A stretch of DNA of 63,968 nucleotides, filler included, from Licmophora abbreviata (Eukaryota): the NCBI GenBank assembly GCA_900291995.1. It is 12 parts of 12 records of this genome, joined end to end, with 100 filler letters (N's around TTAATTAATTAA, not from the genome) between each part and the next. Parts side by side here need not be neighbours in the genome. Positions count along the whole stretch, not along the records: positions 1 to 11,022 come from OLMU01002077.1; positions 11,123 to 23,481 come from OLMU01002078.1; 10 more parts are not named here. One strand, written 5' to 3'. The stretch's first letter is position 1; every line of letters starts with the position of its first letter. Positions 7,132 through 62,954 of the stretch are shown here, one piece after another. The position numbers and the translations under genes were made by a program. The notes under the pieces were generated by a model. It was not told the origin of the DNA. It worked only from the letters and a program-made list of their open reading frames with translations, and made no database searches.

Positions 7132-8485
7132 TTACACGATCACCGCACCATCTGGAGCTTCTGTATAGTCCATTCCCGTGTTTTCGATTCTGCGAGGCGG
7201 TCGGGCTGCTGTAGCTGATGATTCTCCAGCAAGTGTTCCGAACAACTTCATTCTGCGCTCCAGACTTCCTGCGAGAGGATGCGATGCTTCCACCACACGT
7301 CTCTGTTGAGAAATGAAAAAGGAGGGTTAAGTTTGCATTTTTAGTGAAATGCTATAAAGTATAACAAGACAAAAGACATCACAACGAACTTACGCGTCGA
7401 AGGGCCATGGCACCAATCGCTGCGCCCGCTACAACTGCGGCTGCGACCAACATTACCATGCCCATTGTTCGGGCAGAGTTACCACTACTGGTGGCGGCTC
7501 TCGACGCGCTACTTCCACCACTGCCGCTAGTTGCACTGCTTGCCGAACTGGTTCCCCCGCTTCCTGCATTGCATGAAAGAAAGACAAAGTGAATCATGTC
7601 AGATAAGAATCATTCTTGTCACGATATTCGAAAGCGGTGTTGTCACCGCTGGGAGTTGCATGCCCATGCACTCACCACTGCCACTACTTCCGCCGCCTGT
7701 AATAAAAAAGATAGAACATGGTGTTAGCATCGTCTGCCTGCGTCTGAATCACTACTCAGCGCACACGAAGTGTAGCTATCCGAATACGTTCTGGTCACCG
7801 TCTCCATGATCGTCATGCACAACACTCACCACTGCCGCTACCGCTGCTGCTTCCCCCGCTGCTGCTTCCTCCACTACTGCTCCCCCCACTGCTGCTTCCC
7901 CCACTGCGCTTCCACCACTACCACTGCTTCCACCACTGCTTCCACCACTGCTTCCACCACTACCACTGCCGCCACCACTACCACTGCTTCCACCACTACT
8001 ACTGCCGCCACCACTACCACTGCTGGATCCTCCTGACACACAATGAAGCAAACACAGAGTGTTAGAAGTCTACAAGACTGAATCTATATCAAACAGGGTG
8101 ATGCTCTCTATTCCGCCACACAACACTCGTCTTCTTTGGAGAGAAAGAGTAGCAATGATTCGATTCTTCCCAAGCGCACGACCGCATCGATACTCCGCGT
8201 TGCGCCTGTTTCAAACTACAATATTTACTTACCACTGCCGCCGCCGTTGGGAGGAGGCTTCGGAAGCGTATATTGAACAGCTACGTTAAGGACAAGAAGA
8301 GAGAGAGAGGCATCATGAGACTCATAATCGCCAATGGTGCCGTTCGCCAGGAATTCCAGGACTGGCTTTTTCATTTGAAACTCACTTTGAAGCTTTCGCT
8401 TCTCTGTCAATTCCGAACTGTCCGCTGCGGTCATTGCTACGGCCACAAAGATTGCCCAGAGGGCCAACAGTCGAGAGGAGATCAT
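7132..8485 (-). CDS. SAP-like type-I membrane protein A, Gly/Ser-rich (exons 8485-8386, 8280-8233, 8032-7830, 7696-7676, 7563-7394, 7302-7132; 1-nt frameshift at ~7908)
   Basis: All five introns are GT-AG with compatible phases. Signal peptide MISSRLLALWAIFVAVAMTAA, RKL motif, poly-G/S, TM MGMVMLVAAAVVAGAAIGAMAL, tail RRRRVVEASHPLAGSLERRMKLF...MDYTEAPDGAVIV. Confidence 0.75.
7830..8032 (-). repeat. Coding Gly/Ser repeat array (GGSSS/GSG units)
   Basis: Tandem ccactgctt / ccactacca / ccgctgctgctt units on the plus strand. Confidence 0.85.
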
Positions 8486-9126
8486 GGTTTGCTATTCTAA
8501 GATTGCTTTCGAGAGTAAGCTTGGGAGCTGTGAGAGAGCCTGCCTCCTTGATGTGCTTTCAGCGACAGGAACACGTGACTTGCCGGGGTCCGTCTTGTCA
8601 CAGCGGTGCATTCAATTTCTATGCCCACTTTTTGAGAATGCAACTCAACGCGCGCGTAATCCCCTAAATGGCGAAGTCCTTGTATAAATGGATTAATAAT
8701 TCAAACTGGGTCAAAATTTTATTCGGTAATTCACTAATGTAGGTTACATTAACATAGATTTTGCGAAGTAAATTGGCTAACTTTATCGTACGGGATTCTT
8801 TACCACATTCATCGTAGCCTTACGGGACTAACTTGGGCAGAGGGCCAGACCTATTGAGGTTCAAACGACTTGAATACTTCATAAATTTGGCGATTCTACG
8901 CTCACAAAATCAAGGCACAAAACATACAATCTCAACGCATCAAACGTTGGTTGTACCGCGTGCTCTACTGCTTGAACGGATTGGAAATAGATAACATAGT
9001 CTGCAGAGACGAATTTGATATTTCAGACTCGCTTCATTGGAGTTGATGAGCTCATGAACAAGTCGGCGACAAGATCACACATTTCATTTGAAACCCACTC
9101 CATTCAACAGACATCAATCCTTAGCC

Positions 9127-10171
9127 ATGTTGATTCCACGCCTGCTTTCCCTCGTCGTTGCTTTCATCTCGGCTACCTCCCTTGCGGCGGCCGATGAGTC
9201 TTCCTTCTTCCTGCGTCGTTCAGATTACGACTCCGAGTTTGATCGCACTGACCGTAGACTCATTGCTTGGAGTTGGAGTAACCCATGGTCCAGTTTGCTT
9301 TGTAAGTTTCGCCTGTGTCACACCTGACGAGTACCAAAGCGCGCAACATTCCGCCTCTTACACTTTTCATCCGCATGTACCTTGCAGATGCTGTACATGC
9401 ATGTCCTTTACTTGGGCCGATTTGCCCAAATCCGGAAGGCCTGTGCGCGGACTGGTGTCACGACCGCCGACCTCCGCCTCACTGGCACTGTCAAAACACT
9501 TGTTACGATGAAGATGATTCTTCTACGGCTGATACAACTGCCTCCGATTCAGGTACGACGGACTCAAGTACCTCAGATTCAAGTACATCGGACACAAGCA
9601 CAACAGACTCAAGTACGTCGGACTCAAGTACATCGGACTCAACTGCTTCAGATTCAACTGCTTCGGATTCAACTGTCTCGGCTGCAGCCGCCGAGGATTC
9701 ATCTACGTCGGACTCAACTACCAGTGAAACTGACATGGATCAAACCTATGATGCGGAGGATACTGCTGATGAGGACAGCGAAGGCTTAGAGAACGCCAAT
9801 GTGACAAGGGCTTCAAGCGTCTTTGATCCATGGATGTTTATTGCTGCAGCAGCAGCCGTGTCGATTGTAGTTGGTGCGATTGGAATTCGACAGAGAGTAA
9901 GTGGTTCTCCATGAGAGTATGCACATGTGGACTTGTTGTTATGGGGACAGTAGTAGCATGGCTAACTGTGCACTGTTGTTGTGTTCTGCAGAACGTTGAG
10001 GACCCAGCGGCGCACGAGCTGAATGGTAGTGTCTCGAAGCGAGTGGGACTGATGTCGAGTGGGAGCGAAGTTCCTCCTCTCGAATCTTCTTCCCCACCAA
10101 CGACCTTCGTTGATGTGCCTACTGATGGGGATACGGATTACATCCAGATGGCTCGAAACGGGTGGGACTGA
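9127..10171 (+). CDS. SAP-like type-I membrane protein B, Asp/Ser/Thr-rich (exons 9127-9301, 9388-9896, 9992-10171)
   Basis: Signal peptide MLIPRLLSLVVAFISATSLAAA, RRL motif, Cys/His/Pro mini-domain, DSSTS repeats, TM WMFIAAAAAVSIVVGAIGI, tail HELNGSVSKRVGLM...TDYIQM. Introns are GT-AG and in phase. Confidence 0.8.
9515..9725 (+). repeat. Coding 15-bp tandem repeat (D-S-S/T-T/A-S pentapeptide, about 12 copies)
   Basis: gactcaagtacatcg-like units translating to DSSTSDSSTSDTSTTDSSTSDSSTSDSTASDSTAS. Confidence 0.85.
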
Positions 10172-10617
10172 TCATGTCGAGTGGGGGCGAAGTAAGTTCT
10201 GCTTCTTGACTCTTCGCCTCCAAGGATCTTCGTTGATGTCCCGGGTCATGCGGACTTTGCTCAAGTGTCACTAAAGATTACTACTAAAATAGAGTGTGTA
10301 AAGCGTGAGCTCGAACGAGGTTATCCCCATCGCTTCACCCTTGTCCCGGAGCGCGCAGACAGATGGCATGACTTTCTGTGTGGTCCCGCGCGCGATCTAT
10401 TTGTGGTCCCCGCGCGTCGCGCAACACTCCTCGCGACCTCAGTCTTTTCACCACACATCATGGCACATGATCGTCTCTGCTGCCAGCAACAATTCACTCG
10501 TGGTCCGCGTGTACGCCCTTGGTATCTTCCGTTGGCGTTTTCTCCTCACTCTCATTCGTCGTCAGAGATCTAGGATTGTTTTTGAAATTTCACACACAAG
10601 CAGAGAAGAACACAGAG

Positions 10618-10989
10618 ATGGAAGGAGTTCAGCAATTGCCTGCTCACCAGCAGCAAGAGTTCATGAAAAATCTCGAACAGATGCAGTTGAAGGATAGTTT
10701 GACGTGAGTCTCCTTTGAATCAATAGGAGCCTGACTCTTGTATCGCTTATGATGACTCACAGTAATCCCATCCTCTCGGTGTTACAGAATGTACAATAAC
10801 TTGACCGAACGTTGCTTTGATGCATGTGTGTACGGATTTCGATCCAAGACGATGGACAAGAAGGAGACTTCATGTGTGGAACATTGTGCCGCTCGATACA
10901 TCAAAATGACTCAAAGAGTCGGACTGCGCTTTGCGGAGCATCAGGCTATGCAACAGAAACGGGCTGCCGATGCCGCGTCGCGCAACTAA
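10618..10989 (+). CDS. TIM9: Mitochondrial small Tim chaperone Tim9 (exons 10618-10703, 10788-10989)
   Basis: Twin CX3C motif (ERCFDAC...TSCVEHC), QLKDSLTMYNNLTERCF and MTQRVGLRFAE. GT-AG intron at 10704-10787. Confidence 0.9.
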
Positions 10990-11022
10990 GAGTAAGAAAT
11001 GAAGTGTTTTCTTTTGCTATTC

Positions 11023-11122
11023 NNNNNNNNNNNNNNNNNNNNNNNNNNNNNNNNNNNNNNNNNNNNTTAATTAATTAANNNNNNNNNNNNNNNNNNNNNN
11101 NNNNNNNNNNNNNNNNNNNNNN
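11023..11122. other. Artificial scaffold linker N44-TTAATTAATTAA-N44 (first of 11)
   Basis: Identical 100-nt linkers at 11023, 23482, 25753, 33563, 37513, 41712, 45081, 49931, 55845, 57352 and 62855. The core places stop codons in all six frames. Confidence 0.97.
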
Positions 11123-11651
11123 GCGCAACTAAGAGTAAGAAATGAAGTGTTTTCTTTTGCTATTCACATTTTTAATGGCGTGAGACAGGAGACTATTGTA
11201 GGAACTGAAGCGCTACTGAAATGAATGTACTTGTTCTTGCTTAGCTCTAAAGTATTGTACATCAGGATGGCAGGATGGCCTGTTGGTGGTCGGTGACACC
11301 GTGCGTTGCTCGCTGTGAACGTACGCTCGGGCGAGCACCTTACGTACACTACTTTTCAAACCACACCCCATTGTGATTTCTTTATGGCTTCCTTCACCAT
11401 CTCGTCCTCTGTCGCATGGGCAACAGAGGAATTGACAAGTGTGTAAGTGCTATGATGAATGTTCGAGTTTTCGTTTCAACTCCGCATTTCGAATTGTATA
11501 TTGAAGATACGGCCATGAGTACCGAAGTATGTTTCATTCTTGTGGAAAATTTGACAATCGCGTCACACCGCCCACCATAAGAACGCGAGATCGAAGCCAC
11601 AGGTGTGACAACGACAAAGTGTCATCCTTGCATTCCATTCCTACGTTTAAA

Positions 11652-12750
11652 ATGAAGATCAGCGCTCTCGTGATCGCCTTGGGAGCTTCAGTGCTTACCA
11701 GCGTGCCTTCGGTTGTCATTGGACAAGAAACAAACGCCATTCAGAGCAGAGACTTTGATGAAGAAATGCTCGACATTCCCGAGACGCAGGATCGTCGTGG
11801 TCTTTTCAGCTTCTGGGGAGTGGTTCTTATGAGTGAGTACAATGTAGAGCGATCGGTTTTCCCTAGTTTGTGGCTGTTCGTACGGCCATTCCAGAGCGGC
11901 CGATGGATCCCCATGGCGTCGATCGTGCAGGCATCGCTCCGCCCTTTTTCTATGCTTCATGCGTTAGAGACGTTACGTCACCTATGTGTAAACCTCCGTT
12001 GTGGTCTATATGACACTTCATTACTTATGAAAGCATCCGAGCGAGCGCATCTACTCTTGAAATTCTGAAACTCGTCCGGTCGGTCGTTTATCGAAAATTC
12101 CCTTCTCACCGTCACTCTACTTTTCTTGCGCTTTTTGTAGTGATTCATCCTAATGAATGCCCCGACTACTTTACAGAAGAGGAATTCGCAGCATGTAAAT
12201 CTTGCGTTCACAAATGTCCTCCGATTGCAAAACCGCATCACGACTGTGTCTCTGAGTGCATTTATGGTATCTCTGCAGATGGTTCTGATACCAGCACAAG
12301 TGTAAATGCCGCCGATGCTAGCTACGTGAACTACGAAGATGTGACAGGACGCGACACCGCCACATCGGGCGTAGCAACGTCCTCGAGAAGCTTTAGCTGG
12401 CTAATGCTGGCTGTCGCCGGTGCTGCCGCAACGGTAGGTTCTGATGCGCTCGGGGCGGATCTATGTGCTTTAATCCACCAGAAAGTGAATCTCACAGCGT
12501 TGTTGAATCTTTGATGTGCTTTGTTCTGTTTTTACAGGCCGCCATGGTAGCCGCCATTATCGGACAGCGTCGAGAACGCTCCGATCGCCATCCCATGGCA
12601 GGCGTCATCAGACGTCGCGTGAATCAGTTCAGCTGCTTTGCGGATAGTGCTGTATGTGCGTCGACGGATCGACCGGAGCGCGTCGTGGAGATGACCATGT
12701 CAAATGAGGATATGGATTATAAGCTTCAGAGCGGGCAGACCGTTGTGTAA
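11652..12750 (+). CDS. SAP-like type-I membrane protein C (exons 11652-11832, 12141-12433, 12538-12750)
   Basis: Signal peptide MKISALVIALGASVLTSVPSVVIG, RGL motif, Cys/His/Pro mini-domain, S/T/D-rich linker, TM WLMLAVAGAAATAAMVAAIIG, tail HPMAGVIRRRVNQF...DMDYKLQ. Introns are GT-AG and in phase. Confidence 0.8.
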
Positions 12751-13022: not shown

Positions 13023-14735
13023 TCATGCGGAAAGTAGAGCAGCAATCTTCTCATTGCCGGAGCGCTGGGCGATGTCATGCGGCGTCTGGTTATCTTTATC
13101 GACAAGGTTGGCAGAGGGAAAAACCTCAGACAAGAGCCACCGACAAGTTTCGTGGTGTCCGGCCGCAACTGCCACATGCAAACACGACCTGTCACTGCTG
13201 TCACGGGCCAATGAGACCGAAGCGGATCGAGACAAAGAAAGATCTCGAAGACCTTGCGTGTTTCCCGAAGCGGCGTATTCAATTGCTCTCCTGTGAATTG
13301 CTTCGTTTTGCTTGGGTTTCGAGCCGTCTGCCGACGTTTCCTCAAGGCCGATACCTAGCTGACAAATAACCTGAAGCACAGAGGAGTCCATGTCATTGTC
13401 TATATTGGCACCAATTTGTCGTTCTCGTAGCGCCATAAGCAGGTCCGGAACGGAATCTGGGCGCACACCCGCGAAATCGTAGCTATTCGCTACGCCAGTC
13501 GACGAATGTAGCATTCTCGCAGCTTCCCTGGACGCCAGCACCTTTGGGGACGTTCGCTGAGTCATTTCTCTCATAAAACCTCTTACTGCTGCATCCGCAT
13601 TTGCTCGCTCTAACCACGATGCCAAGAGCGGTCCGTCCATGAATGCTTGATTGGCTCCTTGTCCCTTGAAACAACTCATGGGATGCGCAGCATCGCCAAG
13701 AACCACTACACAGCGAGACAAGGTTGGGTTCTGGTGTTGTAATAAGTGTTTCGGATCTCTATCCATCAGTGGAGTCCCCCAGATGGTCTCCTCGGGGGTA
13801 GCTCGAATCATGTCCATCACGGGCGCATGCCAAGAATGACATCGACGCAAGACTTCCTCGCGAAGACACTCGCCTCCGGCTGCCGCCAATAGTTTCGCTT
13901 CTTCCAAGTCGTCGAATCGATACGACAGCTGCCACATGACGCGCCGTTGCTGTTTTGTACCATCCAGTCTACTGCCTTGGTATGGCATGGTAAAGAGACG
14001 ATGCGTTCCGTCCAGCGTATAGAACCCCCTTTCATCGGTTAGAGGGTGCAAGAAGTCGGCAATGCCCAAAATGAGAAAAACGTTCATGTACTGCAGCTCT
14101 GCAGTATCATCAGCGTCGTTATCACTCTTGGATATAAGTGTCTTAACAACGGAGCTTCGAATACCATCGGCAGCCACGAGCAGGTCCACATGTCGGAGAG
14201 TTGACCCGTCGTCAAAGTGTAGCGTAATTTTCGGTTGTTCTTCGTCCTCGTCCCGCGAAAAGGTCACCAATCGCTTGTCATATTGTATTCTAGTCTCTGA
14301 ACTTTCCAATCGATCCTGCAATATGCCAAGCAGCACACTCCTTGGTACACGAAGATTCCCCCTCTGGCCCTTTCCTCGGTGCGGCACAAACGCATTACCA
14401 TAGTAGCCCATGACTCTTCCGTCCGTATCAAAGACATAGTGCGAACGACTCGGACAGTCACATGCTGCCACCTGTTCTAATATTCCCATGTGTGCCAGGG
14501 GACCTTTGGGGTTGTATGCGAGCGTCATGCCGTAGCCTTTCCGGGGGGTATCACGAGGGTCGCGCTCAAAAATGGACACATTGTGAAACCCCGCTTGGTG
14601 GAGACAAATGGCGGCCCCGAGGCCTCCCAGGCCTCCCCCTATGACAGCGATTTTCGCATCCTTTCCCAAGCGCTCCTTCTTCCGTCTTTTGGGAGTAGAG
14701 CGTTTGTTCATGGTGGCCGCCGCTGTCGTCGCCAT
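13023..14735 (-). CDS. FAD-dependent monooxygenase (FAD_binding_3 type) with C-terminal ankyrin repeats
   Basis: IGGGLGGL, LVAADGIRS and LGDAAHPMSCFKGQGANQA motifs. C-terminal SCLHVAVAAGHHETCRWLL and QTPHDIA. Confidence 0.85.
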   Translation of the reverse strand: MATTAAATMNKRSTPKRRKKERLGKDAKIAVIGGGLGGLGAAICLHQAGFHNVSIFERDPRDTPRKGYGMTLAYNPKGPLAHMGILEQVAACDCPSRSHYVFDTDGRVMGYYGNAFVPHRGKGQRGNLRVPRSVLLGILQDRLESSETRIQYDKRLVTFSRDEDEEQPKITLHFDDGSTLRHVDLLVAADGIRSSVVKTLISKSDNDADDTAELQYMNVFLILGIADFLHPLTDERGFYTLDGTHRLFTMPYQGSRLDGTKQQRRVMWQLSYRFDDLEEAKLLAAAGGECLREEVLRRCHSWHAPVMDMIRATPEETIWGTPLMDRDPKHLLQHQNPTLSRCVVVLGDAAHPMSCFKGQGANQAFMDGPLLASWLERANADAAVRGFMREMTQRTSPKVLASREAARMLHSSTGVANSYDFAGVRPDSVPDLLMALRERQIGANIDNDMDSSVLQVICQLGIGLEETSADGSKPKQNEAIHRRAIEYAASGNTQGLRDLSLSRSASVSLARDSSDRSCLHVAVAAGHHETCRWLLSEVFPSANLVDKDNQTPHDIAQRSGNEKIAALLSA

Positions 14736-15101
14736 GGTCCAGTCGGATGTTGTTATATGATTTCGTGTTTTTGCGCGAAGGTCTGTCCGTCAGATATGAG
14801 GCGTCCGCGCGTCCACTCAATTTTGGAAAAATGGGTCTGGCCTCGCAAGATCGCGTAGACATTAGTACTGATGGTACGGGGTAAAGGTGGTACGTTGACC
14901 AAAATTCAAAGCATTTCGCGATCTTTCGTTCGAAACGCACGACAAAAAAGCACAGCCAACAATAAAAGAGCTGTGCAGCGTATCACAGAACGACGACAAT
15001 CATACTCGCTGTGTTGTCGGTCCTTCTCTTGCTCTGACATCGCCTCGTTGATCGAAACTTTGAAATATCCTCGCTTGTTGCTTGTTTTATCCTCATCAAC
15101 C

Positions 15102-16001
15102 ATGTCTTCCAATTTGAGCGAAGTTCAGAATGCCTCGGTGGGTGCCATGGTCGGTACGATCGAGGTGCTCATGCTGCAGCCCTTCAACTACGCCAAGAAC
15201 ATGGTCCAGCAGCAGCAAGCGCTCTCCATTAATCCGCTCGTCATGTACCGTGGAGTCGGCGCCAACTGCGTTAACATGGGTAGCTGTACCATGATTCAGT
15301 TTGCGGTCGGTGGCAAACTGAAGAATATGGTAGTGGGAGAAGACTCCAACCGCAAGTTGAAACCCCAAGAAGAGATGATGTGCGGTATTGCAGCCGGTAC
15401 CGTCTCTGCAATCGCTGGGAGCCCGTTGGAACTCATCATGATTCAGCAACAACGCAAGGGAAATAGTACTCTCGCTACATTCAATAGTATAGCGTCACCG
15501 TCCAACTTCTTTCGTGGCTTTGCGGGTGCCGCTGTCCGAGAAGCTCTCTGGACATGTGGGTACCTGAGCATTCCCCCGATTGTTAGAAACTACCTCCTGA
15601 CCAACCATTCCGAGACGTTTACTTCTAACGATAAGGCGCGAGTCCCTGCCGCACTGCTCGGAGGACTCTTTGCGTGTTACATGACACATCCCTTCGATAC
15701 AATCAAGGTGAGTAAGCCACTGTGTAATATGTGAGTGAGCGAGTCCAACAGAATAATAGAAGACTTCTCACCTTTATACTTCTCCTCCATTATTCTGCAG
15801 ACTTGCATGCAGGGAGACATTGAACGATCCGTGTATGGATCTTTCACGCAGTCGGCGGCCAAGATCTATGCGGACAGTAACATTCCTGGTTTTTACCGAG
15901 GTGCCACCTACCGCTATGCGCGAATGGCCTGTGCCGTGTTTATCATGGATTCCCTCAAGGAAACTCTCGGGCCGCTGATGTACCCAGCCGCTTTCAAATA
16001 G
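15102..16001 (+). CDS. Mitochondrial carrier (SLC25) family protein (exons 15102-15707, 15801-16001)
   Basis: Three repeats with PFNYAK, PLELIM and PFDTIK, plus YRG/FRG motifs. GT-AG intron at 15708-15800. Confidence 0.88.
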
Positions 16002-16470
16002 CGAGACTGATGATGAGGCAACGCAGAGCGGGGCGACTGATGATGAGTCCAATTTTACGGTATCTACAGGAACATATTTTAATTCTATGGATTACATCAG
16101 TCATCGTGTCGATCCGAAGCATACCGTAGCGTCCTTTACTGTCCCAACTCAAGTCGTCCAATCAGGAAACCGGCATCAAACGGGCGATCAAACTAAACAT
16201 GTTCTCTTGTTGCGTCGTATAGACGGTCGTAATTCCTTGTACATAGTTATCGTAATTGGTGTATTCCAAACAAACCACACATCACGTATCGTTACAAATG
16301 TCCACCTTTTTTTGGGGCATGACCTTGGCAATTCATCATCCATCAACGTGGCGCGGATGACTCGAGAACGATCGGATCAACCCCAGTCAGCAGCATTATC
16401 AATGATGAGCACAAGGGAGGACCTGGGCAGGAATGGAAAGACTTTGCATAGGAATCATGCTTCAATAACA

Positions 16471-18396
16471 ATGCTTTCGCCAATACCAGCTGGGTTCTCG
16501 TCGAGAATTTCGAATACTCTCGCTATGATGGCCATGTTGTGCCTGATGCTCTCACAAATCACCGAAGGCTTTCTCCACATGAGGCTCCCCTTCCGCGGTC
16601 AAAAGAGTTTCGAAACAAAACTCCCTTCCGACATGTATCTTAGTACAAAGGAGGTCAGTGCTCATCGGGCTATCGTGGTCGGAGCAGGACCAGCTGGCTT
16701 GTCGGCCGCTCTTGTTCTGTCCCAGAGACACGGCTACCATGTCACTGTATTAGAATCTGCTTCGGAAGAAGAAGTTTCTTCATATGATCGATCAAGAGCA
16801 TACTTGTACAATGTCAACGCCCGGGGGCAAGTCTTGACGAAACGATTTCCATTCCTACAGGACGGTCTTAAGGAACGCGGTGTTGGGGTATCAAATTTCA
16901 GGCGGCTAACGGTCCCCGGAAACCCCAAGGAGATCTTTTCCACTGAACATTTCTCGCGTCCCATGTCAAAAGAAGAGAAGGAAATGATGGGGGTGCTCTA
17001 TTGGATTCCTCGCCATGAGTTTGTTCGGCTGTATCTAGATGCGGTAGCTGCAGATGAGCGAATCAAAGTGTGCTTTGGCACGGAATTCAGTAGCCTCAAG
17101 CCGGAATTGCACGGAGGCGAGATTGCTGTGACCGCCACCAAAATATCAGATGACTCGACTAGTTCGTATACGGCCAATCTGATTGTGGGAGCCGACGGAG
17201 CCAACTCAAAGGTACGAAGGGTCGTTCGAAAATCGTCTCAGCGTTGTTGCTGCCTCCACTCAGTCTCTTGTCTGCCGTTGTAGGTTCGGGATCTCCTTGC
17301 TGATAAGGCATCACCCTTCTCGACGTGGCGCAATGGCCACCCACGGGGATTTCGTGCAAAAAATTGGAAGTCGCCGTCGGTCGGACTGCGAATTAAGGTG
17401 AGCGGCGTCTGTTCTGTTTGTCCTTACCTCTTGGGGATGTATCAGTCATATCGACCAAGACATTAACTTCTATTTTATTCTTTGAACTTGCAGACTATTC
17501 AATTAAAGCCAAAGTTTTCGATACCTGTCGGGGACGGTACCTCTGTGATGGCTGACAGCTTGACGGCAAGTTATCAGATTCGATCGGTCAATTCAGGAGC
17601 AAGGAATCAAGTGTCGTTGACGCTCTTGCCCGTCCGGAATAGTACAGCCGTTCGTCCTTGTGCCATTTGCACTCTACCCAATCACGAACTCTGGAGTATT
17701 GACAATGGAAAATCAATGAAAGACTGGTTTGCGAAAGCTTTTCCAAGATTCTCGTTCGACGGACAAGAAGGAAGCTTGGTATCAGGGGAGGAGTGGGAGC
17801 GTTTTGCAGCATCTCGAGGAACCAAGTTCCCTCTTTGCCAGTACAGTCCAAGCCTTCATCTGGCATCTGAAAATAATGGTTGTGGAATTGTGCTTATAGG
17901 AGATGCGATTCATTGCTTTCCACCCGACCTAGGCCAGGGTGTCAATGCTGCACTTGGAGACGTTGCGGTGCTCGATGACGTGCTGAAGGGGCACACCACG
18001 CTAGGTGACGCTCTGCGGGAGTACGAGACACAGAGGGGACCAGAGGTGATGGTTGTTCGTCGTTTGATGTTATGAGTGAGTCGTATCTCATACTATGTCT
18101 TTCCCTCTGTCGTATAACAGTGTCGTGCGTTGATTCGCTTGGCACGTCACGGCGCCCCCTACCAGTATCGTCAGTCCTCACCAGCCCTGATTTTCCGGAG
18201 GTATTTATGGACAATGAACATTGGTCTTCGAATGCTTTTACATAAGGCTTCTCGAAGTTTTGTACCGAAACCAGCAGTTCTCCTCATGATGGATCCATGT
18301 CTAAGTTTTCAGACTGTAATGAGAAGGGCCGACACAGTCACGGCAGGGCTTCTCTCCGCTGCAGCGTTATTGGTCTGGAGGGTCTTTCGCAGATGA
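16471..18396 (+). CDS. Plastid-targeted FAD-dependent monooxygenase, kynurenine-3-monooxygenase-like (exons 16471-17211, 17284-17397, 17494-18045, 18121-18396)
   Basis: VVGAGPAGLSAA, IVGADGANS and IGDAIHCFPPDLGQGVNAA motifs. Leader MAMLCLMLSQITEG|F. Three GT-AG phase-0 introns. Start uncertain (16471 or ~16525). Confidence 0.8.
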
Positions 18397-23481: not shown

Positions 23482-23581
23482 NNNNNNNNNNNNNNNNNNN
23501 NNNNNNNNNNNNNNNNNNNNNNNNNTTAATTAATTAANNNNNNNNNNNNNNNNNNNNNNNNNNNNNNNNNNNNNNNNNNNN

Positions 23582-25385: not shown

Positions 25386-26310
25386 AGTCTTCTTTCTGAA
25401 GAGAATGCCCATGGTGCAAGCAAAGAGAATCGCCGTGAGAGTGTTGTACGGGAGAAATATACTGTATCCATCTTAAACATCACAGTTGTCAATCACAGTT
25501 GTCAGCGAGCAGCCAATACAATCGGCAATGGCATGCACGTTTCACCGGCAACGACGAAGGGGCGACAAGAAGGAGAAAACGTACATTGTTTTTTCTTGGG
25601 TTGAGATCTCGGTCGTCAGAGCAGCTGGATCTTTCACTTTATGAGAACGGCGCTTGTAGTGGGCGGTTGCTCTTTGTTGTGGCTATGCAACCTGCTGGTT
25701 TGATGTTGGATCCGCGTCCTGGTTGTGGCTGGTCTTGGCTCATGTGGCTGCCNNNNNNNNNNNNNNNNNNNNNNNNNNNNNNNNNNNNNNNNNNNNTTAA
25801 TTAATTAANNNNNNNNNNNNNNNNNNNNNNNNNNNNNNNNNNNNNNNNNNNNAATCTTGCTTGGGCATGATTCCTGTCTTGCAAAAGTATATACTATTCA
25901 TACGAATGCAACTGCGTATCAGGCACCGATTACATTATACTATGATTCATGACTATAGGTTCCGCTTGATCCGCGTCATGGCATGGTCTTGCTCGATCCT
26001 ATCTAGATTCCATTCATGTGAGCTTCAAAAACGTCACAACGTCACTTTGAAAATCTACATAGGGCCCGGTTCGACTCTTTCGTCACATTCAGAATTGACC
26101 TCTTTCATCTTTTCCCTCACAGCGCTGAGCACGACGAAGCACGGGACAGGAGCAAAAGGCGACGAGCTGATACTGAAGAGACACTGTGACCATGTTGGAG
26201 AAGCCGTGGCGCCGTTTCTGCTGAGTTTGAGATGGACTAGCATACTACAATGTTCTCTGCCGTAAAATGAGGTCGAAGCGAAGCTAGGAAGATAAAAAAC
26301 ACAGGAGATC

Positions 26311-32145: not shown

Positions 32146-34073
32146 ATGGCTTGGATGCGGTGTCTCGTGCTTCTGTCACTCTTTCCGTTGGCTGTGGCGT
32201 CATCCCGCAGTGCCACGCCTCCTCGAGGAAGGACACAGAGTAGCTCGAGAAACTACCGACAATGGTCGGCGTCCGGTACAGCCAACGCCGCTCGTCGCGG
32301 GCCCACTCACGACGGCCGAGGTCGTCCATCGAAGCATGACGACGGCCACGGGACTCGTCCACGACGGAAAAAGAAGAAAAAGAAACGCCGTCGACCCAAG
32401 GCCAAGACGGACTACTCCGTTGGCCGAGGAGATCCCATGGACTGGTCCTCGTCCTCCTGTGTCCCGACCTTGGTGTATTCTGACGCTGAGCATGAAGAAA
32501 GCGTGCTTTCAGCATTGGCCAGGGTAGAAGAAAGCGACCAAGAGGAGGAACAGGATGATGACGTTGCGGAAGAAGCTTGGAAAGAGCGGAGTACCAAGAA
32601 AACTCAACATATGGCGTGCATCGAAAAGGAGGCGACTTCGGTGGCCGCCGTACACAAGACTGTCGATACAGAGACAACTGGCGAGGACAACAACATGGCA
32701 CACGACGACATTCCTGAACGGCACAGTATGGACCATACAGCTCTCAGAACAGCTCAGGCTCCGTCGACATCAGGAGTGATCCACCACACAGAACGGGTGG
32801 AGAGCGTTACGAAGCTTGAGGCCAGTTCAATTCAGCGACTCCCCAGGCATCACGATCTGGGAGTCCACAAACCGCCGTTCCTTCCGCGACGCAGCCTGTC
32901 ATACGCCACATTCGACCGTCAGTTTCGCAGGCACCTACTTACGCATCGCCTCATCGACACGCAACGACGAGCTCTCCTCCAGTTGCTTCAATTTCTCAGC
33001 CCCGAGGTGCGATGCCGTCTTTCCCGACTCGAGCCGTTCCTGATAGTGCCTCTTACACGGCAGCAGCGGCGGCTACTACTCCTTGGGCGCGACGCTTCCT
33101 GTCGACACGTCCACGAGATGCACTTCTCCCTGTACCACGCGAATATCTCTCGGATGGGTTCAACTTGGTCCAACTTGCGCCGATTGTCGAGCGCATTGCC
33201 GCCATGGACGCAGGGTACTCCGCATGCCGTGGTCACGAACAACAGCAACACAAAAGGATGGCAGACAGACTATCACTATCCCTTATTCAAAGCAGCACTT
33301 CGATTGATTCTACAAGAAGAAGAACAAGAAGAGCTGTCGCTGGTTCCTGTGACGGTACAGAGAGCTGCGGAAGCCTTGTACTCGCTTGTGCATGCGCGGT
33401 ACATTATTTCGCCACGAGGACTGGATACTGTTCGACGTGCCTTTTTGGGAGGCCTCAACGGGACGGTGGAGCCGGTCTTTGGCAAATGCCCGCGCATTTC
33501 GTGTCGAGGAATGCCATTGATGCCTCTGGGCGACTCGGACAATTACGATTATATGGGTCAGTNNNNNNNNNNNNNNNNNNNNNNNNNNNNNNNNNNNNNN
33601 NNNNNNTTAATTAATTAANNNNNNNNNNNNNNNNNNNNNNNNNNNNNNNNNNNNNNNNNNNNTACGATTATATGGGTCAGTCCAGTACCCGCGCCAAACG
33701 AGTATGTCCGTGCTGTCAAGAGGTATGTTGGGTGGTTGTTGTGAAGCGCTGCTTTTGTTGCGCATGCATGCCGCCGGTTGACTTACGCTACCTCGCCTGC
33801 TGCTCCTCCGTCCTACAGAAATTTTACATGTGGGATAGCCGTAGCGACGAGAGCGCCTGGGGGCGCTCGTTCTGTCACTTGTTCCTCATGACGTATGGGA
33901 GTGAGATATTTCTGGAGCTGCTCAAGGCCCGACGAGATAAGGCTGGTGGTAGCGCGGCAGCTTTCAGGTCGGTTCCACATCGATCCACAGTTTCACCGAG
34001 CATCTTTGGGTTCCAAGTGCATCCTGGATCGAATCTTCGATACCCCGTACCGGTTGAAATAGGCTCGAAATGA
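32146..34073 (+). CDS. Casein kinase II beta-subunit-like protein with long N-terminal extension (frameshifts at ~32915 and ~33220; spans gap; intron 33723-33818)
   Basis: PWARRFL...VPREYLSDGFNLVQL, AAEALYSLVHARYIISPRGL, FGKCPRISC...PLMPLG, CPCCQE, AWGRSFCHLFLMTY and PSIFGFQVH appear in CK2-beta motif order. Confidence 0.75.
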
Positions 34074-37350: not shown

Positions 37351-37761
37351 GATGGTTGTTGAATGTGAGTATTTTGGTATTTTCTATTTTCAATTTGGTC
37401 AGGGTGTGTGATAAGGGCGACGATCGAGATTTTGGACGGATGGCTGTCGTGGAATGTCGCTGCGACAATCGGAAGACAGCGCCGACCATACACCACTATG
37501 ACTTCGACAGATNNNNNNNNNNNNNNNNNNNNNNNNNNNNNNNNNNNNNNNNNNNNTTAATTAATTAANNNNNNNNNNNNNNNNNNNNNNNNNNNNNNNN
37601 NNNNNNNNNNNNTTTTGGATCTTTTTCGTGTCAATCCAACGCACTCCCACCCGACCTTCTTGTTGATGCTGTTGATATTGTCACGCTGTCACACTGTGCT
37701 CCTCAACTATTTGACTCTTTGTCATATCTAAGCTACAGCTTCTACTCCTGATCCAACGACC

Positions 37762-41404: not shown

Positions 41405-41927
41405 TCGAATGGTGCGCAATGTGCCATGTGGACGACGACGATGCGTGCGATACGGGTGTGAACGGGTGCGCGTGGCGCGAAGATTGTGTGAGAGTGCGAC
41501 ATTTCTGACATCATCCTCATTTACGAAGTCGCGAGCTCTTAAAACCCGGGGTTGAGGCGTCGCCGCCAAACACTGTTTCGACCGTGTGACGAACCAAAAG
41601 CGCGACCACACAAGACACTCACACACACAGCATCACAGAGTTTTGGCACGACCTCTTCCACTACATTGAACTGTATCTCGTTCCTGTTTGAGGTTCTCTT
41701 TCGCCAGTGACNNNNNNNNNNNNNNNNNNNNNNNNNNNNNNNNNNNNNNNNNNNNTTAATTAATTAANNNNNNNNNNNNNNNNNNNNNNNNNNNNNNNNN
41801 NNNNNNNNNNNGCTCTACACACCTTGCGCGAAGCGGTGAACGGGGTGAAGATCGAGTCGCAACACTAAGCAATCACGAAAAAGAAGAAACGATTCGCTGT
41901 TACACGAACACACAAGAGACGACGAGG

Positions 41928-45050: not shown

Positions 45051-45342
45051 GCTGATGCCTTCTCTTCTGTCCACGTCAAANNNNNNNNNNNNNNNNNNNN
45101 NNNNNNNNNNNNNNNNNNNNNNNNTTAATTAATTAANNNNNNNNNNNNNNNNNNNNNNNNNNNNNNNNNNNNNNNNNNNNCGGAGCGGACGAGATTGTTT
45201 TGGTGGCGTCGGAAGGAGGGAATCTTGCATCGCTCTTCTGCGACTGCATATCATTCACGTCAACATATACGATGAGATTCCCTACTCTAGATTCCTATGT
45301 CAATGCTGGCACTGGAAAAATTCCCTCAGTCAGAACACGACC

Positions 45343-47012: not shown

Positions 47013-50000
47013 TTAGAAAGAAGTGGCCCGAGTTCGAGCGCGACGAGCGTCCGGTTTTTCCATCACACCTCCATGGGTGCGACTCGACGCACCCTTGTTG
47101 AGGTACTCTACCTTGACTGCACTTCCAGAGAGTGAAATAACGTTGTAGACTTGCGATTTGTAGACTCGCCCGCCACTCTCGGCTGGTACCGCACGATAGG
47201 CCAACATAGCGTTGCCACCCAAGGATGCCACGTGCGCTCGTGCAATTGCATTGCATTCTGTGACAAAACGATGAAACTCGGAGGCCTCGCCACCACGCGA
47301 CTCGCGAATGAAGTGCATCGAGATACTTCCCAGGTACTCGGTGACGACCCCTCCGGTGACGTGATGCAGTGGTGTAATTTCGACTGGAACTTCAGTCACC
47401 TTCATCCATGAGTTTGAGTTGATTGGCTTCCCAGTAAGCGATGAGACTGGAGCTCCAATGCTTGTGGTCCGAGTCAGACTTGCGGGCGTCAGCGGCGGGA
47501 TGGGAGTATTCAGCGTAAGTTCATCGCTCCTCATTGAGGCAAGCGCCTTGGCCTGCTCAAGGCTTTGATTTCTCCTCGGCAGCGATTTTGGGGAATACTT
47601 GAACCCAGCTCCGGGCGACATCCGTAGAGTTGAAGGCGACACTGGCGAAGAACTGAGCGACCCAGCCTGGTCTGCAGTTTCGTTTTCGTCCCCTTCTTGA
47701 ATCGGCTGGGACGTTTTGCTCTCCACACCAAAGTGCAGACCCTTCATGTCATCGCTGAGAGTGTCCACAATGACTGTGGATATGTTGACAGGCTGGTCCA
47801 TTTTAAACAGATTGGACACACCTTCTTCGATCTCTGCGAGCAATCGGCGTTGTTCAGAGTCCTCGCGTCGACGAATCTCATATTCTTCTGCGATGGAGCT
47901 GTCAGATTCGTCTTTATTGGCGCCATCTCCCATCCGCGACCACCTGTTGAAATCCTGTTCTAAGATAACATGACCGAAGGCGATCAATTCGATCTGATCG
48001 TCGGGTGTCAAGTTGCACTGTGTCCGAAGTCCGTTCAAGACGGCAGGTGCCATGGGCTTCAAGAGCACACAAAGCTTGGCATATAGCTCTTGGAATAAGG
48101 CCGAGAAGATCTGGTTGCTCCGAGTTCCTCGAGATGCAGGATTCCATCTGAAACGCAGCATGCTCATTATCATGGGTCCACTGCAGGCCTCCATTTCTTT
48201 CCCTCCGTCACCGAGACCGAAATCGGGGATGTGCCGACATGTCGAAAGACGGATTCCTTCAGGTAGTTGAGAATCTAGGAGAACGCTCATGATGTCTTCG
48301 TCAGTTTCGTCGTCGATTCTACGTGTGGTGATAGGATCCGCGTTTAGTATGCGGTCGAGACGGCAAGCCACGTCAGAACACTTCCAGGTACCTGGTACTT
48401 ACTCTAAAACAAACGGGGCCTTGTCATCGCGATACATTCGTCGACGGCTTCGGTGACGAAGACCTTGTCCATCATCAGGAAGCAAGAGCTCTGCATCCAC
48501 GGTCCCTGCTAATTCGTCCAACTCTTCAATATCCGGGCGGCTGCTTCGACTCTCAAAGTCTGTCGATCCGTACATCTCGTTAAACTCAAGCTCAACACCG
48601 GCTGACATTGCGTCCGCACCACTGTCTCGTTCCAGTGCCCCGAAGGATGAATCGGGGCTGATTTGACCGTGTCGTCGATCGTCTGTACGTGTCGCTTCGG
48701 ATTCTTTCTCACTTTCAGTCTCGGAAGAAGAGCTACTGGATGACGTGCTAGCACTCGACGAAGTGCTCTCGTCGGAGCCAGTCGGACTTGACGAAGAACT
48801 GCCCTCCTTTTCGTCGTCGTCGAGCTCCAATGATAGGTTTGAGCTTGTCTCTCGAGCATTTAAGGGCGAATCGTCAGCGCGACGAGTGGCAGGCGTGGTC
48901 TTGGAAAATGCAACATTGAGGTCGCCCTCACTCTTCTGTGCCCTTGGTCGGAACCTCCGTGACTCTTTTCTCCGCCTCGATTCCCTTTTGCGCCTTTTCT
49001 CAGTTTCTTTGATCTTTTTTACAAGTCGCAATCTAGACTTTTCCGCGTGTCTCTGAGCTGCTGCGGCCAGGCGCTGCCGGTTCTTTGCAGATATAGTTTC
49101 GATCTTTTGTTGGAGCTTTACCAATTGATGATCTTCCTCATCCTGAACCTCGATTGTTCGAGAAATTTCGAGGATTCGAGGAGGAGGCATTGCCGTGCAG
49201 TAGACGGCAGTAGCTGTCGCAGTCGAGACGATAAGCTGTCGACCCACATCCACTTCACTCTTCAATGCAAAGGCTGCATTTCTACCGAGTACTTTGAGTT
49301 TAAGCATCAGTTGCCGAGCGAGCTCGTACTCCAGAAACGGGAGAGCCTCACTGACAGCCAAAGCGTCGCTCTCGCCTACAGCTTTCGGGCGCGATCGACA
49401 CACGCGAGCTTGAATGAACATTCCAGAACCACGAATCGGTAACCGATCCGGTGGCTCGATCGTCGCAAGAATCACTTCTGGTACCCATTTCTTGCCGCAG
49501 AGAAGACAAGGTACCAGCTTCATGTTGGTAAACGGCGCCAACTTATGATGGTACGGAACGTGACAGTAGGAGCATGGTTTTGCCCTGCGGGCACGAATGA
49601 GCCGCGTCGACTTCTGTCTGCCCCGGCGTGATCTGACGAAGCTGTTATTTGCTGGCACCAAAGGGAGTTGGTCGTTTTCTGAATCTTCGAATTTGACTTT
49701 CAGCGGCTTATTGCGCCGACGAAAGCTTCTGGAATTGGATCGTTCGCCATGTTCACCCTCGTTGGCATCGTGGTGGCTGTCTAGTTGTAACCTATTCCAG
49801 GTGCGATGTTCCTGTGTCACGTCCGGCAAGCCCCTCACCGTAGCAGCAGTACCGGTGATGGACAGAATACAGACATCGTCATGGATAGTAGAAGCTTCCA
49901 AGTACCCCACCACATGAGAGCAACATAGAANNNNNNNNNNNNNNNNNNNNNNNNNNNNNNNNNNNNNNNNNNNNTTAATTAATTAANNNNNNNNNNNNNN

Positions 50001-51573
50001 NNNNNNNNNNNNNNNNNNNNNNNNNNNNNNCCCAAATACTTGACGCATCGAGCGGTGACTAGACCGCCGATACGCACGCGAACACTCGAATCGAACTCCC
50101 GAACTGTGAGAAGGCTCACTTCGTCCTGCCTGTTCTCGCGATGCCGGGCCGCGGCAGCCCCAGCATCGCTCATGAAGAGAGCCGATCGACTGGAAAGAGA
50201 AGACGGCACGCCCGAGTCTTGTCCGCTACGATGTATCTCGGCCCCCTTCGGAGGAGAGCGATCCCCTGAAGAGTAATCTGCAGGCGCACGGACATTCTCT
50301 TGTTCACTGTCTGTTGCGAGCATAGAATTGATGAGGCTATCCTGTCGGAACGAGGCCGCGGGCTTTTGTACCTCAAGAAGCACGCAGGTTCCATATGTTC
50401 GCGCCACGATACCGGAGTCGCCTTCCACGTCAAAGCTCTGATGATAGGCCAGTACTGCATTCCCGCCCATCTATCTCATGAAAAGACACAAGCATGAGTT
50501 GAAAAAAGAAACCAGTCTTACGCAACAATACAGACGCCGATAATCTTACCTCGAGAACTTTCTTACACATTCGGCGTCGCACAGAAGCATCCAAGAGATA
50601 CAGAAGCGTCTGTCGAGACTCATGCGACGTCCTTGCCTGGCGAAAATTTTCATTCCACTGATACTCTGGATCATCTGCAACGACGAGTTCTTCCACAAAT
50701 CCAAAGATGTGTGCCACGACGTAGCCCGCAGCCGGATCAAGCTTCGAAAAAGGAAACAACTGCACACCCGCGGAGGAGTCACGAAAGGGATTCACGTCGC
50801 CAATGAACTTTAGTTTGATGGATACACACAATTCTCCCCGGACACCGCCCAGTGTATCGTAGATTGGAAACCAGCCATCGATGATTCCACCCGATGAAAG
50901 TCCTCCCTTGACAGCGCTCCGTCCCCCAAACTCCAAACTGCTACTTCCAAAAGTATAACTCCGTGAGCCATCTTCTTCCATCCCCTCCATATCATCCCGT
51001 GCCGACTGCGTCAACAATGGATTCAAATCAATGTAAACAAGTCCAAGCGACTCATCCACTCCCAACAATTCGGAGTCGCATACTTTGAAGATCAATGGCT
51101 CATCTTGCAGTAAGGTATCGTCCGCAACCTCGAATCGAAACTCTTCGTCCCAGACGGGGTTCATACTCCGACGACATACTTTCGTACGAGCCGTATAGCA
51201 CTTTTGATTTTCCCCGGAAGAAGTTGTGTTGTTATTGTTGTTGTTGCTTCCGATACTCGACTGGAATCGCAGGGCCGTCGAGGACGACGAGGATGGCTCT
51301 TCCTCGTACTCGGCGACTAACCCTGCATGTCCCCCAAGAGACACCGTAACGTATGGGTCGGTACAGGGCACACTCGATGTCAGGATATTCGAAGCGGCAG
51401 CAGAGTTGGACGACGATGCAAGAGTGTTGGGGAGATTACGTGCAGCGGCGACTCGAACCTGTGGTAGCAGAGAAGAGATCATCATGTCGAGAATTACGTG
51501 AGTGAAATTTGGATCGAAAGATCCAGTCATTGGAATTATTCATCTCTCAATTTACCTTGACTGTGGACGGCAT
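47013..51573 (-). CDS. C2CD5: C2 domain-containing protein 5-like with YbjQ-like repeats (exons 51573-51556, 51458-50550, 50470-gap-48403, 48318-47013)
   Basis: Spliced start MPSTVK|VRVAAARNLP, C2 domain, LQDEPL, GFVEELVVADDPEYQW, MGGNAVLAY, ALPFLEYELARQL and HVASLGGNA. An internal part is lost in the gap at 49931-50030. Confidence 0.85.
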
Positions 51574-55844: not shown

Positions 55845-56250
55845 NNNNNNNNNNNNNNNNNNNNNNNNNNNNNNNNNNNNNNNNNNNNTTAATTAATTAA
55901 NNNNNNNNNNNNNNNNNNNNNNNNNNNNNNNNNNNNNNNNNNNNAATCACTGATGGTTCCTCCTCTTTGTCGGCCGCAGAATCGCCGGTCAATGCCATGG
56001 TCAAGATGGATTATGTGTGTCGCTATAGAATGACTGCGCTCTTATTCTGTTGGGCCTGTTTGGAATGACTTTTGACTTTTGAGGCTCGCGAGAAATTGAA
56101 AATGAACAGCAACGCTTGCCAGTCTGTACGCGAGCCGCCATGTGGGTCAGGGCATCTGAACCAAACGCGAATGTGGCTTTTTTCATCAGTGTGGTCAGGT
56201 GGATGTGTATGATACAGCATGATGTTGTTGTCTACCACTCACGTTCCGCA

Positions 56251-62854: not shown

Positions 62855-62954
62855 NNNNNNNNNNNNNNNNNNNNNNNNNNNNNNNNNNNNNNNNNNNNTT
62901 AATTAATTAANNNNNNNNNNNNNNNNNNNNNNNNNNNNNNNNNNNNNNNNNNNN

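Follow-up and report, generated by a model that had tools for sequence, protein, structure and literature searches.

A three-gene cluster in Licmophora abbreviata probably encodes silicalemma-associated-type membrane proteins with a conserved cytosolic tail

We analyzed a window of 63,968 nt of Licmophora abbreviata DNA (assembly GCA_900291995.1), i.e., twelve assembly records joined end to end by filler, with a focus on region 7132-12750, which holds four spliced genes: three genes for small membrane proteins, here called A, B and C, and one gene of the Tim10/DDP family. The window is eukaryotic nuclear DNA, gene-dense and ~50% GC, with short GT-AG introns. Judged from their sequences, A, B and C are related members of one family defined by a conserved tail behind a single transmembrane (TM) helix. 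They most likely form a previously undescribed three-gene cluster of a family that is already known, namely the silicalemma-associated proteins (SAPs), which are among the very few proteins whose knock-down is described as altering diatom silica patterns.

Three spliced genes with one architecture

We reconstructed gene models for A, B and C from splice sites and translations, and all three emerged as spliced genes, as a first-pass annotation of this DNA had proposed (Table 1). They lie within 5.6 kb, with A and B head to head and 641 nt between them. GT...AG borders were found for all nine introns, the donors reading GTAAGT, GTGAGT or GTAGGT. In each gene, one intron, of phase 1, comes after an Arg-x-Leu (RXL) site and another, of phase 0, falls at or in the TM segment; the latter stands 7 codons ahead of a conserved tail His in A and B, and 17 codons ahead, inside the TM segment, in C. 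The common intron plan described in the annotation thus stands for these two introns, while gene A has three phase-1 introns beyond the one following RXL and the site in C is shifted.

Table 1 Features of the A/B/C locus and the assembly linkers of the window (positions count along the whole window; TM, transmembrane; pI, isoelectric point; ORF, open reading frame).
Feature	Position	Strand	Description
Gene A	7132..8485	-	Six exons; probable type II ("RPPRR", SAP2-like) member
Gene A exon 1	8485-8386	-	Predicted signal peptide, RKL
Gene A exon 2	8280-8233	-	TVQYTLPKPPPNGGGSG
Gene A exon 3	8032-7830	-	GGS repeats
Gene A exon 4	7696-7676	-
Gene A exon 5	7563-7394	-	Ser-rich part, TM
Gene A exon 6	7302-7132	-	Tail, stop
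Gene B	9127..10171	+	287 aa, pI 4.05; divergent member
Gene B exon 1	9127-9301	+	Predicted signal peptide, RRL
Gene B exon 2	9388-9896	+	Six-Cys stretch, (S/T)DS repeats, TM
Gene B exon 3	9992-10171	+	Tail
Tandem duplication, ~120 nt	10030..10270	+	3' end of B; copy 1 ~10030-10150, copy 2 ~10149-10270
Tim10/DDP-family (TIM9-like) gene	10618..10989	+	Two exons, exon 2 inside ORF 10756-10989; between B and C
Linker 1, 100 nt	11023..11122		N run, TTAATTAATTAA, N run; separates Tim10-family gene from gene C
Gene C	11652..12750	+	228 aa, pI 4.84; probable type I ("RPxRVVEM", Cys-bearing tail) member
Gene C exon 1	11652-11832	+	Predicted signal peptide, RRGLFSFW
Gene C exon 2	12141-12433	+	HPNECP...CPPIAKPHHDC, Ser/Thr-rich part, first half of TM
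Gene C exon 3	12538-12750	+	Rest of TM, then tail
Linker 2	23482-23581
Linker 3	25753-25852
Linker 4	33563-33662
Linker 5	37513-37612
Linker 6	41712-41811
Linker 7	45081-45180
Linker 8	49931-50030
Linker 9	55845-55944
Linker 10	57352-57451
Linker 11	62855-62954

The order of parts put forward earlier, i.e., signal peptide, RXL, Ala-rich TM helix, basic stop-transfer residues and tail, is seen in all three translations. Predicted signal peptides, called by hydrophobicity in all three, correspond to hydrophobic 19-mers starting at residues 1-7 in B and C (Kyte-Doolittle >1.6) and to the hydrophobic N-terminus MISSRLLALWAIFVAVAMTAAD in A; the RXL sites that come next are RKL (A), RRL (B) and RGL (C). 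A single internal Ala-rich hydrophobic helix, marked in B by 19-mers with starts at 202-209, in C by 19-mers with starts at 144-150 and in A by MVMLVAAAVVAGAAIGAMAL, is followed by basic, Arg-rich residues. The tails beyond the helix measure ~58-62 aa and read HPLAGSLERRMKLF in A, HELNGSVSKRVGLM in B and HPMAGVIRRRVNQF in C, with the tail exon of B carrying HELNGSVSKRVGLM...DTDYIQMARNGWD. In the conserved tail of the family, the parts come in the order basic stop-transfer, HPLxGS, short amphipathic helix RRMxLFSxFA, RPxR(V)VE, acidic stretch, Tyr and hydrophobic C-terminus.

The lumenal parts are of low complexity and differ among the three proteins: A carries GGS/GSS repeats, B (S/T)DS repeats with 17.8% Ser, and C a moderately Ser/Thr-rich sequence with 10.5% Ser. 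The earlier description of these regions as Ser-rich therefore suits B and, through its Gly/Ser repeats, A, and fits C less well. Just past the first intron, B and C have six Cys within ~35 residues, where A has LPKPPPNGGG; A has no lumenal Cys at all. This Cys stretch was rejected as proof of kinship between B and C, its score being reached by 231 of 2000 shuffles, and a CPPxGP profile matched C with an E value of only 0.5 (no value was reported for B). No KXXK or pentalysine clusters were seen in A, B or C.

A conserved tail defines a wider family

The annotation had also claimed that the tails align with one another, and they do so above shuffled controls. Local alignment of the tail exons scored 67 for A-C, 40 for A-B and 38 for B-C, against shuffle means of ~20-22 with a standard deviation of ~4, and these scores were reached by 0, 3 and 4 of 2000 shuffles, respectively. 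The corresponding BLASTP E values were 7e-9, 1e-3 and 0.59.

We then used the three tail exons as a 59-position profile (A1) in a HMMER search of 1.84 billion cluster representatives. This retrieved 86 proteins at E<=1e-3, five of them at E<=1e-10, each from a distinct cluster at 50% identity. In 85 of the 86, proteins of 52-286 aa, the match lies close to the C-terminus; the outlier, P0043, a repeat protein of 677 aa in which four stretches matched, was excluded from all later steps. Relatives of full length follow the order signal peptide, RXL, Cys/His-Pro motif, Ser/Gly-rich stretch, Ala-rich TM helix and tail. The consensus of a 33-row tail alignment (A2) reads GQR......HPLxGS..RRMxLFS..A.......RPxR.VEM......Y, in which one Arg and the Tyr are invariant and H, L, G, L, F, A, R, P and R occur in at least 90% of rows.

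To avoid circularity, a family hidden Markov model (HMM) was built from database proteins alone, i.e., from the last 80 residues of 87 proteins (P0001-P0088 minus P0043) with the window sequences left out, even though these relatives had themselves first been found by a window-derived profile. Across all 1876 stop-to-stop ORFs of the window (minimum length 20 aa), this HMM recovered the tails of C (6.9e-28, 93 bits), A (1.6e-19, 66 bits) and B (1.6e-7, 27.9 bits), and the only other ORF under 1e-3 was the TM exon of A itself (4.5e-4).

Searches of other resources added few relatives and no annotated domain. Pfam gave nothing at E<=1 for the nine exon translations bar a sub-threshold ion-channel TM match, and only sub-threshold DUF1180 and New_glue matches for 17 full-length relatives; a profile search of the PDB with the tail gave tropomyosin as its best match (E 0.49). 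In word-index searches, in all of which candidates were crowded out, the C tail yielded none of 61 candidates at E<=0.01, a weak blank, while the 33-tail alignment yielded one protein, P0087, among 8000 scored candidates, and residues 167-220 of P0005 yielded two candidates, P0005 itself and P0088. A metagenome scan with an 8-row alignment (A3) found one locus, L001, of 1476 nt; it carries an intronless full-length P0005 gene at 784-1446 and a divergent upstream ORF, and is uninformative on synteny. An ESM Atlas search with P0018 reached a best score of 0.83 against unnamed clusters and was likewise uninformative.

AlphaFold2, run on alignment A2, predicted coil throughout the C tail exon except for one short, confident helix (residues 21-32) that spans GVIRRRVNQFS (mean pLDDT 71.8, with block 21-30 at 89). 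Across 90 tails, i.e., the 87 database tails plus the three of the window, 35 end in ..V and 25 in Y-x(1-3)-A; together with the invariant Tyr, such hydrophobic ends suggest that the tail holds a short linear motif for sorting or docking.

Two old subtypes within the family

Motif patterns counted over the same 90 tails separate two kinds, with 50 RPxR.VEM-like tails, 25 RPPRR-like tails, 3 with both patterns and 12 with neither. By this measure C is of the RPxR.VEM kind, with a Cys common in that kind, A is of the RPPRR kind, and B has neither motif. The full-length proteins of the two kinds also differ at their N-termini: those of the first mostly carry RRxL(F/I)xFW..LF followed by a CPPGPLG..C-like motif, and those of the second carry HPPPP/KPKP and then Gly/Ser runs, like A. 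In 14 N-terminally complete relatives, R-x-L is followed by Trp within 1-4 residues. A profile of this RXL..W motif, made from 15 segments of which one (P0021) was a false pick inside the TM helix, placed C at the top of 2878 targets (16.8 bits, E 1.3e-3), a score reached by none of 500 shuffles of C; the runner-up, at 14.6 bits, was one of 500 shuffles of B.

In a quick maximum-likelihood tree of 89 tails over 59 columns, in which many forks are unresolved, C pairs with P0001 at 100% support in the Shimodaira-Hasegawa-like approximate likelihood ratio test (SH-aLRT) and 79% identity, while A falls inside a 12-row clade (98% SH-aLRT) with P0015, P0024 and P0074. B, with a branch length of 2.61, has no supported position. 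A and C are thus each far closer to relatives in other genomes than to each other, which agrees with the earlier claim of an old origin: their divergence probably long predates the species represented by the database relatives, and any tandem origin of the cluster would therefore have to be old as well.

In the A-like proteins P0015, P0058, P0073 and P0085, an insert with Val first and Gln last occupies the A/B intron position, as fits a read-through phase-0 GT..AG intron, suggesting that intron positions have been kept across species; P0042 likewise carries an insert at an intron position of a window gene. The C-like fragments P0001, P0004 and P0035 start ~14-17 residues ahead of the His, like the last exon of C. 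Read by eye, intron position seems to follow subtype.

Comparison with published silicalemma-associated proteins

In Thalassiosira pseudonana, the published SAPs are TpSAP1-3 (Thaps3_25736, 25805 and 25807, the last with the alias 11967; Tesson et al. 2017, PMC5647440), and Cyclotella cryptica has CcSAP1-3 (Wang et al. 2023, PMC10503012). Published work presents the family as mainly centric. A SAP is defined as having a signal peptide and an RXL site, a region rich in Ser, and a single TM helix with a conserved 28-aa segment just past it, the published values being 11.9-24.8% Ser and 17-40 kDa (PMC5647440); the CcSAPs are given a C-terminal region of 58-68 aa that includes a conserved 23-aa segment (PMC10503012). 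Set against these descriptions, A, B and C likewise have a predicted signal peptide, an RXL site, a Ser/Gly-rich lumenal part and a single TM helix, followed directly by a conserved segment that stands at the position defined for SAPs and is common to the 86 database proteins; their cytosolic C-terminal part is of similar length (58-62 aa), and protein masses of 24.7 and 30.6 kDa fall inside the published span. They differ in that C is less Ser-rich and B is short of part of the conserved tail. A, B and C are clustered, and clustering of SAP genes goes unmentioned in the searched text of PMC5647440.

Terminal peptides of four SAPs, translated by hand from the published cloning primers, offer a second comparison. 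TpSAP1 begins MARLPY... and ends ...EQYREMA, and Y-x-x-M-A ends occur in P0008 (YNRMA) and P0053 (YTTMA). TpSAP2 (MSRIRRTT... to ...MGIAVV) ends much like P0077 (FGIAVV) and P0087 (FGITIV). For TpSAP3, the primers encode MMQRFAL..., an internal HHPPKPK and ...DNSEYSR, and P0026-P0040 include HPPH/KPKP motifs and DYVRA ends. CcSAP2 begins MNTRIRIL... and ends ...IAIV, and P0087 begins MNCRIKII and ends ITIV. The latter protein, of 193 aa, matched the tail profile with an E value of 2.2e-7 in 5.8 billion sequences, and its tail is closest to that of A (63% identity over 30 aa, E 6e-9), followed by C (2e-5) and B (0.077). P0087 looks like a CcSAP2 orthologue.

On these grounds A, B and C quite probably belong to the SAP family. 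As to how they fit into it, we consider it likely that the three form one SAP-type family in which A represents a SAP2-like "RPPRR" type, C an "RPxRVVEM" type to which TpSAP1 probably belongs too, and B a degenerate copy, with the mode of action proposed below.

Other biosilica and membrane proteins resemble A, B and C less closely. Silicanin-1 (Sin1/SiMat7) and SiMat7-like proteins are likewise type I membrane proteins of the silica deposition vesicle (SDV), with a signal peptide for the endoplasmic reticulum (ER), one TM helix and a short, cleaved cytosolic tail; by description, however, their lumenal domain is large and has eight conserved Cys, unlike the lumenal parts found here, and the conserved part of A, B and C is instead the cytosolic tail. 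The soluble biosilica proteins, namely silaffins, silacidins and cingulins, also combine a signal peptide with an RXL propeptide site, and their low-complexity sequence is acidic, rich in Ser and probably phosphorylated; the (S/T)DS repeats of B come close to it in their silacidin-like composition. These soluble proteins have neither a TM helix nor a conserved cytosolic tail. FAM174-like proteins (Pfam DUF1180, PF06679) share the small size, the type I membrane topology and the low-complexity ectodomain, and gave weak matches in 3 of the 17 full-length relatives. These matches scored 16.8-20.5 bits, under the cut-off of 27.7, and no exon of the window matched at E<=1, so that the resemblance is one of layout.

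Irregularities and alternative readings

Several observations weigh against assigning the cluster to the SAPs. The likeness rests on published descriptions and primer-encoded peptides rather than on aligned SAP sequences, and the similarities between termini are post hoc pattern matches; an exact start or end of TpSAP1-3, as given by the primers, was found in none of the 88 retrieved proteins. BLASTp, as described in PMC10503012, detected CcSAP homologues in 4 of 9 diatom genomes and none in the other 5. Reported as lacking SAPs are P. tricornutum, F. solaris, N. inconspicua, P. multiseries and S. robusta. Among the three genes themselves, the Ser content of C lies just under the published range, B was outside the top 15 of the 2878 targets of the RXL..W profile, and its tail lacks the RPxR..E and LF positions, several near-invariant residues being gone. 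In gene A, the third exon comprises 203 nt of tandem repeats, which is not a multiple of 3. Taken together, the related genes, the large tail-defined family and the matching architecture favor the SAP-type interpretation of the first-pass annotation, which is qualified by the degenerate state of B and the broken frame of A.

These last two irregularities give rise to the alternative that survives best, namely that only C works and that A and/or B are decaying SAP-like copies, pseudogenes or nearly so. As modelled, exon 3 of A contains a 1-nt frame break inside the GGS repeat, and the mRNA reaches a stop ahead of the TM segment. The break could be a true frameshift or mark a skipped exon, but an assembly or base-calling error is plausible since it lies in a tandem repeat and the assembly consists of contigs every few kb; skipping of exon 3 would preserve the frame, because the adjoining exons are symmetric (phase 1 at both ends). 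The tail exon of A is moreover highly conserved, as its score with the family HMM attests. In B, the stop codon (10169-10171) sits in the second, diverged copy of the tandem duplication, in another reading frame. With the stop in a duplicated copy and tail residues lost, B looks like a remodelled, possibly decaying copy, and given its low HMM score and long branch we regard it as a degenerate long branch whose 3' end has been reshaped by the tandem duplication. Its frame is nonetheless open over all its codons, with signal peptide and TM helix, and in both A and B all splice sites are intact and the other exons open. We therefore hold it unlikely, though worth keeping in view, that C is the only working gene.

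Less probable still is that the family of A, B and C, though real, is distinct from the SAPs and has no role in silica. Its members, small type I membrane proteins in which a mucin-like ectodomain is joined to a conserved sorting tail, could then be general secretory, endosomal or cell-surface cargo. Besides the indirect comparison with published SAPs and the patchy BLASTp record, this proposal can draw on the database relatives, which carry no taxon labels, and on the DUF1180/FAM174-like matches, which would point to an animal type I membrane family. Those matches, however, cover low-complexity parts, while architecture, tail length and the position of the conserved segment fit the published SAP definition point by point. 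In addition, four independent primer-encoded termini (TpSAP1, TpSAP2, TpSAP3 and CcSAP2) fit the termini of the subtypes, with P0087 matching CcSAP2 at both ends. A chance resemblance born of low-complexity or hydrophobic composition, with unreal gene models, could invoke the lumenal sequences, the B-C BLASTP value and the shuffled Cys stretches, but it is refuted by the tail shuffles, the 86 relatives with the motif at the same place and the scores of an HMM free of window sequences, and the conserved intron positions visible in database proteins also speak against it.

Neighboring genes and assembly joints

The gene between B and C matches Pfam PF02953 (E 2.2e-18), which assigns it to the Tim10/DDP family and leaves the identity as Tim9 itself unspecified. 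In the assembled sequence, the cluster is indeed interrupted by this gene alone, as had been stated, except that a linker also precedes C. The window is a chain of contigs with 11 identical linkers in 64 kb, all of the same length and make-up as linker 1 (Table 1). An identical 43-nt stretch flanks that linker on either side, which argues that the contigs of the Tim10-family gene and of gene C really abut; exact flank repeats of 43, 19 and 32 nt were found at three linker joints, as expected of overlapping contig ends.

Adjoining gene C, a 587-aa ORF at 13023-14786 (-) combines an FAD-binding monooxygenase domain (PF01494, 1.4e-18) with C-terminal ankyrin repeats (PF12796, 2e-7). Two more ORFs with FAD_binding_3 matches lie at 15979-18072 (+) and may be pieces of a second, split monooxygenase gene. 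In T. pseudonana, ankyrin-repeat proteins known as dAnks work at the surface of the SDV.

Proposed role and implications

If A, B and C are SAP-type proteins, a common course of events can be proposed for them. The signal peptide would direct the protein into the ER, and cleavage would occur at RXL, as in biosilica proteins, the RXL here being part of the longer conserved motif RRxL(F/I)xFW..LF. The disordered, acidic, Ser/Gly/Thr-rich part would then reside in the SDV lumen, where, by analogy with TpSAP3, it would probably be phosphorylated and contact polyamines and silica, and this acidic low-complexity sequence may end up embedded in silica, as the SAP literature suggests. The lone Ala-rich helix would cross the silicalemma, and the 58-62 aa tail could offer cytosolic partners a docking or sorting module before being cleaved, as proposed for TpSAPs.

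A more far-reaching version is that SDV membrane proteins universally carry the tail module as their address or docking signal on the cytosolic side, far beyond the centric species in which BLAST detected SAPs, and that the head-to-head pair A/B plus C is an ancient co-regulated unit with both subtypes. The adjacent protein identifiers of TpSAP2 and TpSAP3 (25805 and 25807) may hint at an ancient SAP gene unit, but we consider this version doubtful. If it were true, the tail module would be a candidate membrane "receptor" for cytosolic patterning factors, e.g., dAnks or the cytoskeleton.

For the family as a whole, the tail profile marks a group of proteins much wider than BLASTp showed, with at least two old subtypes that differ in their N- and C-terminal motifs and apparently also in intron position. 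Should the link to SAPs hold, the profile would offer a simple annotation route for SAP genes missed by exon-poor gene finders, and the tail would provide a short, well-delimited cytosolic motif as a candidate for targeting to the SDV or for binding partners.

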